A DNA stretch of 63,906 nt, the filler included, from Dugesia japonica (lineage: Eukaryota): NCBI GenBank assembly GCA_001938525.1. It is 6 parts of 6 records of this genome, joined end to end, with 100 filler letters (N's around TTAATTAATTAA, not from the genome) between each part and the next. Parts side by side here need not be neighbours in the genome. Positions count along the whole stretch, not along the records: positions 36,702 to 54,441 come from MQRL01569677.1; 5 more parts are not named here. One strand, written 5' to 3'. Positions 43,324 to 50,470 of this stretch are shown one piece after another (the first letter of the stretch is position 1; every line of letters begins with the position of its first letter). A model generated the notes under the pieces. The model was given only the letters and a program-made list of their open reading frames with translations. It was not told where the DNA came from and ran no database searches. A program made the translations under genes and the position numbers.

Positions 43324-46300
43324 TGTTGGGGTGAAATACCCGATTAATAAAGAAAATAAGGGGCCAAAGGCCCAAAGTTTAACGATAATGAAGGAAGAAG
43401 TAGAAAAAAAACCTAATTAGGAAAGATAGTTACCGTGGAAAGCGTACAAGTTATCAACAAAAAAAGGTGAAAGAAAAAGCAAGTACGAATAACCACAGTA
43501 GGTAGATAGTGACGCACTGGAACAAAGACTTTTTCAAACCCCCCCCCTCTGAGAAAATTTTTTTCTGGGCGAATAAATCTAAATTAGATAAAAATCAGTT
43601 TCTTATGGATATCTCTGTTTAGGATAAGCACAGAAACTCTTGGAAAGAAAATCTGGAAAGAAAATCTGGAACGAAAAAGATCGGAGGCATTATAATTTGG
43701 CAACTAAGAAACCCTGTCGACATCAGGAAAACTCCTGTAAGCATCTGGAAAACGAACCAATGAGGGGCTGAAAAATAAAAATAAAATAAAGATAAGATGA
43801 TCACATGGCACTCCAAAAATAGACGCTAATGGAAGTTCAAAAAATCTATGAAAAAAGATAAAAATTGGAACAAAACCCAATCAGAATCAGACGATTCAAA
43901 CTAAAAATAAAAATCCAATAGGAATGATGCCGAGTTGCATCGGAAAGTCGTATATTAACCCCCCAAAATTTTGAAGAAATTACCCCTTAAGATTTTGTTT
44001 ATCAATACGATAATACTCTATGTAAATTAGCAAAACAGTTTGTAAAACAAATCATTGTGGAAAATCCATTATCATCACGCTCAAAAAGAAGCAATCGACA
44101 CTTTNNNNNNNNNNNNNNNNNNNNNNNNNNNNNNNNNNNNNNNNNNNNNNNNNNNNNNNNNNNNNNNNNNNNNNNNNNNNNNNNNNNNNNNNNNNNNNNN
44201 NNNNNNNNNNNNNNNNNNNNNNNNNNNNNNNNNNNNNNNNNNNNNNNNNNNNNNNNNNNNNNTAAGCATGTGTTATGTTTTATTTATGTCGTCTCTCTAT
44301 CTCACGTAGTAATTTATAGAATAATAAAAAATTAACAGCTGATAATTTTTTGTTACGCAATTCTCGTATTTATCTTTTGAATAATTGATAATAGTATTAG
44401 TGACATGGTTAATATTCCCTGTTAGTGTTAAGTCAGAATAAATCTCTGCGTTTATCACCTGTATTTGAGCAGGACTGAACCTCANTCGATGAGTGTTGCT
44501 ACATAAAATCCTTAATAGAAAACCAGATCGAGAAATATCATGCCCGAAGTACATACACTTCTTTCATCCTGAATCTCGTTTTGACAATCACTAGTAGACA
44601 AACAGAGAGAGATCTGTCACTTTTACCCACCACCTCAGGTCGAGAAAGGAAACAATCACTAACCCTACATAGCCAATACATGCATATACATTTTTCTGTC
44701 GTAACTTCTAGATGAATATTAAATTTTACTCGGGGATAGCATGCAATCTACTTTAATCAGAATCAATCATCAAATATTATTTCTCTTTAGTAAATCCGAC
44801 AAACCATGTACAGATCCTAACGCAGTCGCAACAGTGTTGATGCTATTAATGTATTAAAATCGAGATTAGGAGAAATGATATTAACATGCAAACAATCATT
44901 AATATACAGTATATTCTTACAAAAGTTGTCAGAAGGAATTGAGGATACAGTAATGACTAACCAAAACGAGTGTTTTGCCAATGATGGCAACCCAGCCACT
45001 AATGCTATTGCTAACACCATTACTATGCATGAGACTCACCATCATTGACATCCTGGTTTACATTGCCAAAATTGTTAGTTCGACTATTAATAACTATTCT
45101 TAATATTCCTATTGCAATTAATTTTATTATCCTTAATATAATTATTATCTTCATCAGTGTGTTACTATTATATTCCATTATTTTTATTAACCTTAATATC
45201 ATTATTATTTATTCTTGATACGATCAATATTGGTAGGCTTATTTTTACTACGAGTATTATCAATATCATGGGGGTGATGTTATTGAATTGTAGCTATTTT
45301 TCAAAGGAACATTATTCCTCTAGTATTATTCCTCGTTTTGTAGTATGTGTTTTTTATGCTAAATAATGCCATTATCGTTCTCATTTTATTCCAATTCATA
45401 ATCTGTGCGAATATCGCTGTTAACGTTAGTAGAAACAATTCGGGGTATTTTTATGATCAATAACGTTGGAGAAAATTATTAATTATCTCATTACACTAAT
45501 CTAAAGGCCAACACCAGGAGACCCATGTTAACCCCTTTTTACTGGGATTGCTTTCTGGGGCCGCAAAAAGTGTCCTCAAGATAATTCGAAACCAACACAA
45601 AACAGCTCGCTTACGACAATTAATTGCCCACCTTCTGTCCCGCGGTAAGGTCTAGCATCCGGACGAAACAGACTTGCAGTGTTTCGCCGAGATGTTCCCT
45701 CACCATGTCGGGTTGATTTAGATGAAGAACATTCAAATTTTAATAAATATTCTAACTGAAATTTTTATTTAATCGAGTCCAATAATTGTTATTAACTATC
45801 AAAATCTTTACTTATTTATATAACTGTTGGCCTAGAACACACCTTNAAATAATACGAAAATCTGCAAGAGAGCAAGCAGAAAATTAAGTGAAAATTGGTG
45901 CTGGACCAGATATTTTATTTTATATTATTATAATTATTATGTAGTTATTATTATTATAATTATTATACGATTATTATTGAAACGAGAAAAAAATGAAAAT
46001 TGGGCGTAGAGGGCCAAAATTTGGAGATACAACAATGAAATTTAGATGTACGAGTAGGAAATAATAGGCTGGATAATAAAATTAATATACACTACTATAA
46101 TATTATATTAGAATGGCCTCTACGACCCATTATCGTTATTATAAATAACGCTAATTAGCGTTTAATATTATTGAAAAATTAATTTATTCTGNNNNNNNNN
46201 NNNNNNNNNNNNNNNNNNNNNNNNNNNNNNNNNNNNNNNNNNNNNNNNNNNNNNNNNNNNNNNNNNNNNNNNNNGACACGAATTTGGTTTTCCAAATTCG

Positions 46301-47369
46301 ATGTCAATCATCGGCCGGAGAGAGAAATCCACACGACGACAGAAGTGCAACAAAATATTCACAAGAAACAGGAACCAACAACCAATAGGAGGTCGAGATT
46401 GCAGAATAAGCACAAACGATTGCTTGAGCAATGAGAGCTCCTCAAACTTCAAATCGGAGAAATGAATGAAATATGGATACCCGAGAAAAGTATTCAGAAT
46501 TTTTAATAAAAATTTTATGCACTTTTTTTTGGACAAATTTTACCTAACAATTATCGAAATAATCAGGAGGACTACGAAGTAATTTTTATTTATTTATTTT
46601 TTATTATGTTTTTTTTATGTTAATAAAATATTTTAAAATCATAACCAAAATCGATATCCGAGTGCCGTTCCTAGGAAAGAGTTTAGGATGTAACATGGTG
46701 GTTGATGAATGTAGAGTATTGGAGAAATTTTTTGGAAGAATGAGAGTACAGAATTAGTTGAAAAAAAATGAAAAATAGGTGTTAATAGTTAGGGAGAGAT
46801 GAATAGGACGTTTTTGCGTAAATGCGAGAAACGAGACTCTGGGAAATTCCAACATTTTGAATCGTGATCGTGAAATATTTATGATCCCAATTATTTTTGT
46901 TTGGTTTGCGTGATTGGGGAGTAAAATAACATATGTCCTTTGTAAAATTATGTTTTATCAGTAAAAGAATAATTAAATCATTTAGCTATTATTATTGCTT
47001 ATTATTTTTTATATACATTTCATTAGTAATTTATAAGGGAGATAACGGGGACGAGAAAAGATGACTGTTTCCAGAAGGTATCTTCTCTGGTTCGCGTTAT
47101 GTAATGATGGGAAATAATGCTAGGCCTCAGGCCGAAAAATCGGTTGAAATTTCTTTTAACTTTACATTAATGGTATTATTGATATTATCACTATATTAAT
47201 GCTTATTTTTTATGTTAATTGATTTGCAATTGTTAGATGAGCAAACCTAGACGAAATTTCAAGCAGCCTCAATATATCTAGCCCTATATCGATTCAAATG
47301 GATATTATTATATTGAATGNNNNNNNNNNNNNNNNNNNNNNNNNNNNNNNNNNNNNNNNNNNNNNNNNN

Positions 47370-47708
47370 GCCGAGGTCCAAGGCATGATCCGAGAAGAGA
47401 AGATATCTCGCATCGACGAAACACGCAACTTGCGAGCCGATCTGGAGGTGGCCAATTTGCGGGTCGCCATACTGGAAGCCAATAACCAGCTACTTTCTTC
47501 CCAACGAGATCGATTGATGGCGGTTCTTGAGGAGACCGAGCCGACAGTAACTGTCGGGGACGTTCGGCAGCCGGAGATGGATCCAGACCATGACGAGGGC
47601 AAAGAAGGAGAACTGGATTCTCAGGTCGAACAGGAAGAGGGCGAGATAATGAGGAGTTTGCTGGGCCTGAGCGGTGCTAGCACGGCCTCAGGTGTTAATG
47701 CGAAATAA
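47370..47708 (+). CDS. Coiled-coil/acidic hypothetical ORF within the giant insertion (5' end in a gap)
   Basis: GC-rich open frame AEVQGMIREEKISRIDETRNLRADLEVANLRVAILEANNQLLSSQRDRL...; the stop overlaps AATAAA. Confidence 0.5.
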   Translation, partial: AEVQGMIREEKISRIDETRNLRADLEVANLRVAILEANNQLLSSQRDRLMAVLEETEPTVTVGDVRQPEMDPDHDEGKEGELDSQVEQEEGEIMRSLLGLSGASTASGVNAK

Positions 47709-49701: not shown

Positions 49702-49858
49702 GGGTACCCAGACAACATGACCATGATGTCGGTTATTTTCAGATATTATAAATAAAAGATTTTTTCTCTTAATAAATCCTTTCTTCCTATTTTTCTACTT
49801 AATTAATAATTCATTTGTTTTAAGAGAAATAAATTATCTAATTATCCATTTTGTTTAG

Positions 49859-50220
49859 TGCCACGAATTTTATTTCCCAATAGTTTAAGACGTTGTCATA
49901 GGATAATCCGGCGACTTCAATTAGAACGGCACTACAAATGTCAGTCCGAGAGTGCCTTGCTGAAACACCTGTCTCAACGAAATAGGTTGATTAAGAAGTT
50001 AGATGTCATCGTGAAAAAGCAGGGAGACCTAGCGGAACAAACAAAACAACTCTTCCAAAATAAAATCGACTTTTTACAAAAATACATCACAGATCTATCC
50101 CGCCAGTTAGGCAATGCGTCGTGGTTTAACTGGGATGATAATGACGACATTGCAGCGTTCGATTTTATTCCTGAAGAGCCAACCCAGTGGTTAGACCCAA
50201 GTGCTCTCGATAATATGTGA
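49859..50220 (+). CDS. Coiled-coil hypothetical terminal exon within the giant insertion; paralog at ~17992-18375
   Basis: Acceptor TTTTGTTTAG immediately upstream. The frame is open in both diverged copies and the only visible indel (~5 codons) is in frame. Confidence 0.65.
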
Positions 50221-50470
50221 TTTCCAAAATAATACATATTAATATTAGCCTTTTGTTTATTTATTTGGTGATTACAATGATAAGGAAAGGAATAAGAACC
50301 CAAACTAACGGTGTAAGGGTGTGAACCTCAAATAAGGTTGGAGGCCAACCTCTCTGCACTAAATATCTAAAACAGGGACTTTAGATTTAAATTCTTGAAG
50401 GGGATTCCCTGAGGACCGTTTTTCCCCGGTCAATGCCCTTCTCAACATCAGCTCAGGTGTAACCACAACA

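Follow-up and report, generated by a model that had tools for sequence, protein, structure and literature searches.

The 7147 nt insert at positions 43324–50470 of the window (the whole 63,906 nt stretch of Dugesia japonica DNA that was analysed) splits a hAT transposase and is best explained as the LTR of a large Gypsy-like (Metaviridae-like) retroelement, either solo or collapsed by the assembly, that carries accessory genes; we give this reading a probability of roughly 55%. Its most notable feature is an open reading frame, ORF D, maintained by purifying selection. Solo LTRs are usually regarded as non-coding promoter remnants, and genes within such repeats are rare. An earlier note on this DNA had proposed a giant solo LTR. 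The single insertion of the integrase type and the LTR-like ends were borne out, whereas a solo LTR and a collapsed full-length copy are indistinguishable in a gapped assembly.

The host element is colinear with BED-finger hAT transposases and lies on the minus strand, with its decayed 5′ part at 50475–51137 and its decayed 3′ part, including the dimerisation domain, at 41903–43319. As the earlier note had it, hAT coding sequence flanks the insert on both sides: the alignment to the homologue P0001 continues from one side (residues 7–222 at 51137–50472) to the other (residues 227–642 at 43309–41906). The break coincides exactly with the insert, and homologues indicate that at most one base of hAT was lost. 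The C-terminal dimerisation domain (PF05699) was detected with an E-value of 0.0013, below the curated cut-off. The hAT element was already decaying when it was split by one clean insertion.

The TG..CA ends and the CTAC duplication claimed previously were verified at both junctions, and the window sequence confirms a single insertion with the termini TGTTGGG...CACAACA. On the left, the first copy of the target-site duplication, CTAC (43320–43323), is followed from 43324 by TGTTGGGGT; on the right, ACCACAACA ends at 50470 and is followed by the second copy, CTAC (50471–50474). A 4-bp duplication at a clean insertion site falls within the range of 4–6 bp given for LTR retrotransposons in the available part of PMC12440569. 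Both insert ends and the 3′ end of a diverged relative (see below) satisfy the LTR end consensus TGTTRNR..YNYAACA, taken from PMC3601003, in support of the LTR reading; the left end (43324–43496, plus strand) is A/purine-rich, and its short inverted repeat at 43324–43332 fits the TGTTRNR half. The inverted match between the ends comprises 8 of 9 nt and does not extend further (219/1000 and 225/1000 shuffles score equally well), which likewise favours an LTR, since the U3 and U5 termini of a single such repeat would be expected to differ past 9 nt. When unanchored, the configuration is common: 50 TG..CA pairs in the window combine a 4-bp duplication with inverted matches of at least 8/9. Once the two positions are constrained to within 6 nt, the full configuration occurs in 1 of 200,000 random position pairs, and TG..CA plus the duplication alone in 722 of 200,000; the insertion positions themselves are given independently by the hAT homologues. 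As a mark of Gypsy elements, however, the combination is non-diagnostic, contrary to the earlier note, because Ginger elements are also described with TGTNR ends and 4-bp duplications (PMC2836005, in part). Two other interpretations of the ends were rejected: short paired LTRs, as no direct-repeat match links the left end to the right (186/500 shuffles as good), and a degenerate terminal inverted repeat, as the local match in question (3/500 shuffles) is internal A-rich/T-rich pairing missing from the relative. Neither an LTR pair around the insert nor, in the assembled sequence, a second copy of its left end was found in the window.

The insert was said to hold no gag, pol or transposase, and this stands, but coding ORFs were overlooked, the selected one included. 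All are on the plus strand. ORF D (49861–50220, 119 codons) has a predicted 80-residue helix and an acidic-aromatic tail, and its stop precedes the right end of the insert by 250 nt. Compared with its homologue in the relative, 73 of 117 residues are identical, synonymous sites are saturated, and pN/pS is 0.29 (bootstrap 0.21–0.41, Fisher p 4e-19, from two copies); the only indel, of seven residues, lies inside the predicted helix. Both the ratio and the indel speak for the LTR reading, and this two-copy comparison shows that ORF D encodes a coiled-coil protein maintained by purifying selection within the family. ORF C (49378–49701, 107 codons, Met at 49444) has two long predicted helices and a GC3 of 0.53, and ORF B (47370–47708), 112 stop-free codons leaving an assembly gap, has a heptad-like stretch followed by an acidic tail and a GC3 of 0.59. 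Shuffling gave p 0.012 for ORF B and 0.0085 for ORF C, with regions chosen after the ORFs had been seen. ORFs B, C and D all run on the plus strand, are of helical character and have a raised GC3, and a single gap-free contig holds them together with the right end. ORFs B and D matched each other by blastp at an E-value of 0.056 in an eight-sequence set, and paralogy is not claimed. In a scan for coding potential, 4 of 70 windows were flagged, all on the plus strand (100 shuffles each, uncorrected for multiple tests). A weak candidate ORF of 75 codons at 44821–45048 was non-significant against shuffles, and coding was rejected in 44400–45100, 45440–45720 and 48480–49180 (shuffle p 0.15, 0.51 and 0.84, respectively).

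While searching for homologues, we found no Pfam family in the insert with all six frames read through stops, apart from sub-threshold coiled-coil matches for ORFs C and D. Motifs of gag, reverse transcriptase, protease or integrase were absent from the insert outside its 294 unseen N positions. Among 410 local queries no other transposable element protein matched it, all four hits stemming from the relative, and neither an Rfam match nor a tRNA was found in the insert. ORF D had no match among 1.84 billion representatives, and neither of two candidates from a word-indexed search held; the best E-value against PDB sequences was 0.39, a two-copy profile had no matches there, and none of seven matches in a viral fold library reached an E-value of 0.001. 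For ORF C, none of 73 candidates, longer proteins only, was accepted, and ORF B was compared with family libraries and local sequences only. Neither NCBIfam nor PHROGs matched any of five proteins. The word-indexed searches missed even the queries, so that coverage of the lineage looks poor and the lack of hits argues only weakly for novelty.

The diverged relative of the right end, comprising an ORF D homologue and the tail behind it, lies at 17973–18620 on the plus strand and terminates at 18620 in ACCCCAACA. The related end is thus where the earlier note placed it, but the similarity starts at 17973 and not at 17665; it was found only between 17973–18620 and 49839–50470, at 63% identity, and the left part of the relative meets a linker gap of unknown size at 17565–17664. 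That the homology ends at the terminal CA favours the LTR reading, as does the conservation of the 250-nt non-coding tail (50221–50470, plus strand; most conserved block 50381–50430), with 154/241 identical positions against 44/117 at third codon positions of ORF D. This tail consists, after the stop, of an AT-rich poly(A)-like stretch, a T-rich run and the right short inverted repeat, which fits YNYAACA. The T-rich run is present in both copies, while the relative has AATAAA 13 nt past the stop and the insert an AATAAT variant, a point against an LTR. No AATAAA or ATTAAA was found on the minus strand of the insert's left 781 nt; together with the AATAAA of the relative this favours the plus orientation, the minus orientation lacking a poly(A) word at the corresponding end.

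Several further observations count against the LTR reading. The verified repeated family covers only about 630 nt, and upstream of ORF D the insert and the relative do not align (365/500 shuffles give an equal score). With only 10–30 nt between the ORF stop and the poly(A)-like stretch, a U3 promoter would have no non-coding sequence to occupy. Candidate splice sites, read by hand, are out of phase between the two copies. The RNA fold of the tail is unremarkable (z 0.09 and -1.43 against shuffles); although the consensus fold of the two sequences has 10/43 double-change pairs, the single folds are no better than shuffles, and a structured tail is not claimed. Gypsy-type pol and gag fragments are present elsewhere in the window, in favour of an LTR, but no copy adjoining gag-pol, a primer-binding site or a polypurine tract was found there, and a TGG primer site is absent after both the insert and the relative.

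A further difficulty for the LTR reading is the interior of the insert, blurred by a foreign terminus at 43497 and by three assembly gaps. The gaps reported before are confirmed at 44105–44262 (158 N), 46192–46274 (83 N) and 47320–47369 (50 N), and with three single Ns they make up the 294 N in 7147 nt. Two middle contigs, measuring 1929 and 1045 nt, each lie between two gaps, whereas the sequence from 47370 rightward through the insert end into the hAT flank is gap-free. The safely assigned portion of the insert is thus limited to 173 nt on the left and the gap-free 3101 nt on the right, and the epithet "giant" holds only for these approximately 3.3 kb. The fragment noted at 43497 is borne out as a repeat terminus shared with others: four further repeat fragments in the window, and more weakly a fifth, begin with its plus-strand terminal motif (43497–43517; an AG/AGAT-repeat start, Polinton-like by resemblance), whose score none of 100 shuffles reached. 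A nested or captured fragment probably begins here, and no far end of it was found in the assembled sequence.

The best surviving alternative, although unlikely, is a composite, in which an LTR of moderate length (173 nt on the left and 0.7–3 kb on the right) received a Polinton/Maverick-like insertion at 43497 that would supply most of the 7.1 kb, perhaps with ORF B and the middle contigs. The shared motif and the short extent of verified family-level homology agree with it, and Maverick end motifs are described as AG/AGT-repeat starts in the part of PMC8097293 consulted. However, the assembled sequence yielded no inverted partner of the motif, matching 6-bp duplication or long inverted repeat, Pfam detected no Polinton core protein, and the likeness of ORFs B, C and D on one contig argues against it. 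A Polinton/Maverick origin of the whole insert fails, because the insert has neither AG..CT ends nor long inverted repeats, and shows no 6-bp duplication and no core genes.

Less probable still is a non-autonomous DNA cargo that has nothing but integrase attachment sites at its ends, was mobilised in trans by an integrase of the Gypsy or Ginger type and has never belonged to a retrotransposon. The gene layout is host-like (stop, poly(A) signal, candidate short AT-rich introns), linkage to gag-pol was not seen in the window, and Ginger1 and Ginger2 resemble the insert in their TGTNR ends, 4-bp duplications, introns and lengths of up to 7 kb, as far as PMC2836005 was available. Yet Ginger requires inverted repeats of 40–270 bp and the insert has 8/9 nt and none further, the target CTAC is neither CCGG/CCGT nor RTATAY, and the insert contains no integrase; an identity with Ginger1 or Ginger2 themselves fails on these same three counts. 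Least likely is an assembly mosaic or an internally deleted element, in either case with correct ends. In the former the two middle contigs would belong to other copies or families; in the latter a deletion would have joined a 5′ LTR stub to an accessory region of the interior followed by a 3′ LTR. The assembly is fragmented, with many gaps, and gaps enclose both middle contigs, but both ends run on into hAT flanks with matching duplications, each inner gap has a size of its own, whereas the five linker gaps all measure 100 nt, and a 3′ LTR would supply a second left-end copy, absent from the assembled sequence.

Under the preferred reading of an accessory-gene-bearing LTR, a retroviral-type integrase would have made the insertion, after which recombination between two LTRs may have left one behind, or the assembler may have collapsed a full-length copy. 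With the plus strand as the presumed sense strand, the stretch just past the ORF D stop would be the poly(A) or R/U5 region, with a U5 of about 220 nt, and ORFs B–D would sit in a U3 of several kb or in an R of unusual length. By analogy with MMTV sag, they may be expressed from spliced transcripts via acceptors in the LTR; a putative model for ORF D has a short first exon (49717–49731) and an AT-rich intron (GC 0.17) within 49717–49858 on the plus strand, and the candidate introns measure 45–61 nt, a length compatible, as is the overall GC content of 27%, with a dugesiid planarian host. ORF D itself would most likely be a coiled-coil adaptor whose conserved acidic-aromatic tail may bind a host factor, perhaps as an activation-domain-like or LIR-like motif. 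The sequence from 43497 on probably includes a secondary insertion, so that the native LTR would measure about 3.3 to 7 kb. It is doubtful that it reached 6.5–7 kb, as long as the largest Ogre LTRs or longer, with two or three spliced accessory genes that lack homologues in the databases searched and have their own poly(A) site, each solo LTR then being a self-contained cassette still expressing proteins after the loss of gag-pol.

Like Ty3/Gypsy solo LTRs, the insert combines TGTTRNR..YNYAACA ends, a 4-bp duplication, the lack of internal gag-pol and a conserved 3′ tail with a poly(A)-like and a T-rich stretch; unlike them, it spans several kb and holds a selected ORF ending 250 nt before its 3′ end, and its parent element was not seen in the window. 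Multi-kb LTRs are known in Ogre and Burro, according to the available text of PMC6431247. The LTRs of the plant Gypsy element Ogre measure 1.9–6.5 kb in that source, but the additional ORFs of that element are placed in its internal part. For Burro, the same text gives a total of more than 30 kb, an internal region of up to 25 kb, implying multi-kb LTRs, and accessory ORFs, and mentions decayed fragments in Dugesia japonica. Compared by description only, the likeness lies in the AT-rich animal genome (27% GC), the multi-kb LTRs and the accessory ORFs; the insert differs in having no Burro polyprotein domain, and ORFs within LTRs do not figure in the Burro description as available (PMC6431247). 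A precedent for a long coding LTR is MMTV (PMC3026287, in part), which with other type-B betaretroviruses has an LTR lengthened by an intact accessory ORF used via a splice acceptor (PMC3026287, PMC3621094, both in part). The likeness is one of design, with no sequence relationship claimed: those vertebrate retroviral LTRs measure 1.2–1.3 kb and hold one ORF, as against up to three ORFs in 3–7 kb.

If the LTR reading is correct, an invertebrate LTR of several kb would hold a selected ORF next to its 3′ end, recombination would spread intact accessory genes genome-wide, and the MMTV-like design would extend to Gypsy-type elements. Giant planarian retroelements have been reported with domains acting on host apoptosis and stem cells (PMC6431247; PMC13465017; in the parts available). 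LTR finders and gene finders would each be liable to misread such a unit. If Burro LTRs are already known to hold ORFs, the insert would be a further copy of a known design. Finally, short tandem repeats (unit lengths 13 and 21 nt) occupy 43632–43920 on the plus strand together with four CCAAT/ATTGG words; this stretch could be enhancer-like or belong to the nested fragment.

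The element at 43324-50470 splits a decayed hAT transposase gene on the minus strand, its junctions reading CTAC|TGTTGGGGT at 43324 and ACCACAACA|CTAC at 50470. Such an end configuration is little proof without an independent anchor, because 50 comparable pairs (TG..CA, a 4-bp duplication and at least 8/9 inverted matches) exist in the window. Here the positions are set independently by the hAT flanks: two homologues of the host transposase are colinear across the insert, residues 7-222 of P0001 corresponding to 51137-50472 and residues 227-642 to 43309-41906 (both on the minus strand), with the same spacing in P0002. 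With the positions fixed within 6 nt, the full configuration occurs in 1 of 200,000 random pairs. Between the two hAT blocks 4 residues are expected, and 3 codons plus 2 bases are present when the duplication is counted once; this spacing is therefore consistent with a 4-bp duplication if one base is taken as lost close to the junction. The insertion is genuine and more recent than the hAT, and the CTAC duplication, the TG..CA ends and the flanking hAT coding sequence described in an earlier note are borne out by the junction sequence and the colinear alignments. The hAT gene carries further lesions (three stops in 464 codons over four aligned pieces, and one frameshift), and an (ATC)n microsatellite at 42242-42463, spanning an 81-N gap, lies in its reading frame and is read as a poly-Asp run.

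Three stop-free frames occupy the plus strand of the insert, all on the gap-free contig bearing its right end: ORF B at 47370-47708 (+), ORF C at 49378-49701 (+) and ORF D at 49861-50220 (+). Their GC3 values (0.59, 0.53 and 0.44, respectively) compare with 0.22 in the host peptidase exon and 0.25 in hAT. Only ORF D has a second copy, in a diverged relative of the insert's right end at 17973-18620 (+), whose right terminus is ACCCCAACA at 18620. The two copies have the same residue at 73 of 117 compared codons (two N-containing codons, a 7-codon indel and two unaligned codons being set aside), and their differences number 37, 17 and 73 at codon positions 1, 2 and 3; pN is 0.24 and pS 0.80 (saturated), a ratio of 0.29 (bootstrap 0.21-0.41). 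These values reflect selection acting on the lineages that gave rise to the copies, though not necessarily on the two copies themselves. The only indel, seven residues or one heptad, lies in a helix that single-sequence structure prediction extends over 80 residues (mean pLDDT 78, pTM 0.38); a conserved acidic-aromatic tail comes after it. Two long helices are predicted for ORF C with lower confidence (mean pLDDT 65). For ORFs B and C shuffles give p values of 0.012 and 0.0085, for regions picked after the ORFs were seen. ORF D has no start codon of its own. In one plausible model it is preceded by a first exon of 5 codons, at 49717, and by an intron of 93 nt with a GC content of 17%, but the candidate splice sites of the relative differ in phase. 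Database searches found no homologues of ORFs C and D, which is weak evidence because the lineage is poorly covered. The solo LTR proposed in the earlier note stands as a genuine insertion and probably as an LTR; the selected gene inside it had been overlooked. Interrupted frames at 48520-48830 (+), with the word VTE three times, are possibly a decayed fourth ORF, not significant against shuffles.

From the ORF D stop to the terminal CA there are 250 nt in the insert (50221-50470) and 245 in the relative. Identity over this non-coding tail is 154/241, rising to 40/49 in 50381-50430; it far exceeds that at third positions of ORF D (44/117), and the match stops at CA. The stop is followed by AATAAA in the relative or AATAAT in the insert and then by a T-rich run, and the minus strand of the insert's leftmost 781 nt contains no poly(A) word. 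We infer that the insert is oriented on the plus strand and that an R/U5-like boundary falls near 50250. The predicted RNA fold of the tail is no better than those of shuffles.

A length of ~7 kb is unproven in full, but the possible fragment start at 43497, raised with it as a caveat, gains support. A 21-nt motif from this position is common to the starts of repeat fragments at 22698 (+), 23946 (+), 30760 (+) and 19562 (-), with a weaker example at 58573 (+); under a matrix built from the four other fragments 43497 is the fifth-best site of the window, with a score that none of 100 insert shuffles attains. The fragments at 19562 and 23946 are alike over about 290 nt (76%), and those sharing the AG/AGAT-repeat start otherwise differ from one another. 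The motif has the appearance of a terminus common to a single superfamily, possibly Polinton/Maverick; its likeness to Maverick end motifs with an AG/AGT-repeat start, as given in a section of PMC8097293, is a resemblance only, and excerpts of 10.1101/2024.01.15.575659 and PMC3014272 do not give its identity. This motif would suit a shorter LTR enlarged by a Polinton-like element nested in it, a reading that is unlikely; the assembled insert contains neither an inverted partner nor a matching 6-bp duplication for the motif, and the window no partner end for the AG/AGAT-motif fragments. Because the motif starts at 43497 and gaps bound the two middle contigs (1929 and 1045 nt), the parts safely assigned to the unit are 173 nt on the left and 3101 nt on the right, of which ~630 nt alone are verified as repeated. 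The relative is uninformative on length, since it runs into a 100-nt linker gap and shows no alignment to the insert over its first 300 nt. Five identical gaps of this kind (44 N on either side of a 12-nt linker with stops in all frames), at 8577, 17565, 26454, 36602 and 54442, mark joins, their 100 nt being a placeholder and not a true gap size. Downstream of the 23946 terminus, 24850-26200 holds degenerate tandem arrays of GC-rich words, which we take to be E2F- and KLF-like, split by A/T runs.

Both insert ends match the integrase-site consensus TGTTRNR..YNYAACA (in a section of PMC3601003). They share no direct repeat (186/500 shuffles are equally good) and no inverted repeat past 9 nt (219/1000 shuffles), which rules out that the assembled sequence holds an intact pair of LTRs. 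Ginger elements, as characterized in part of PMC2836005, resemble the insert in their TGTNR ends and 4-bp duplications but differ in their inverted repeats of 40-270 bp, and were rejected on that ground. Nor is the 4-bp duplication the Gypsy hallmark it had been taken for: LTR retrotransposons generally make duplications of 4-6 bp (in a passage of PMC12440569), so Gypsy is not singled out, and Ginger also makes 4 bp. The reported lack of recognisable gag, pol or transposase inside agrees with our searches, which found no Pfam family in any of the six frames read through stops, and neither a retroelement motif nor a local match to TEs. The TGG primer site is absent after the right end in both copies, and the sequence before the insert's left end is hAT. 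That the insert is a DNA cargo element whose ends are bare integrase sites is rather improbable, and a mosaic or deleted element is more doubtful still. Remnants of Gypsy-type RT, RNase H and CCHC gag, all decayed, occur at 5262-5987, 20386-20721, 29967-30473 and 51241-51875, none adjoining the insert or the relative.

The reading we prefer, with a probability of roughly 0.55, is that of a large Gypsy-like element which a retroviral-type integrase would have placed into the dead hAT, and of which LTR-LTR recombination or assembly collapse would have left one LTR, with accessory genes located in its U3 or in a long R. MMTV, whose LTR is lengthened by an accessory ORF reached by splicing (sections of PMC3026287 and PMC3621094), is a precedent for such an ORF within an LTR. 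According to PMC6431247, Burro elements are more than 30 kb long, of which as much as 25 kb is internal, and are reported as decayed fragments from Dugesia japonica; the LTRs of Ogre measure up to 6.5 kb. Excerpts of PMC8532177, PMC11410931, PMC13238120 and PMC13465017 add nothing on LTR anatomy. The literature searched, with the primary Burro paper outside its scope, contains no report of protein-coding LTRs in flatworm Gypsy elements, and the feature may already be published. The insert is probably an LTR bearing a selected gene, its 7-kb length and Burro membership being putative.

The window's GC content of 27% and its introns of 45-61 nt are both compatible with a planarian. Introns of that size separate the opening exons of a host gene for an S28 prolyl carboxypeptidase at about 16730-17455 (+); motif search found no downstream exon, so the placement of the relative within a peptidase intron is putative only. 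An apparently intronless TBP-like ORF fragment at 34471-34836 (-) (Pfam TBP, E 1e-6) could be a mobile-element-borne copy. A frameshifted transposase fragment at about 18780-19180 (+), spotted by eye in translation, is presumably mariner-like.
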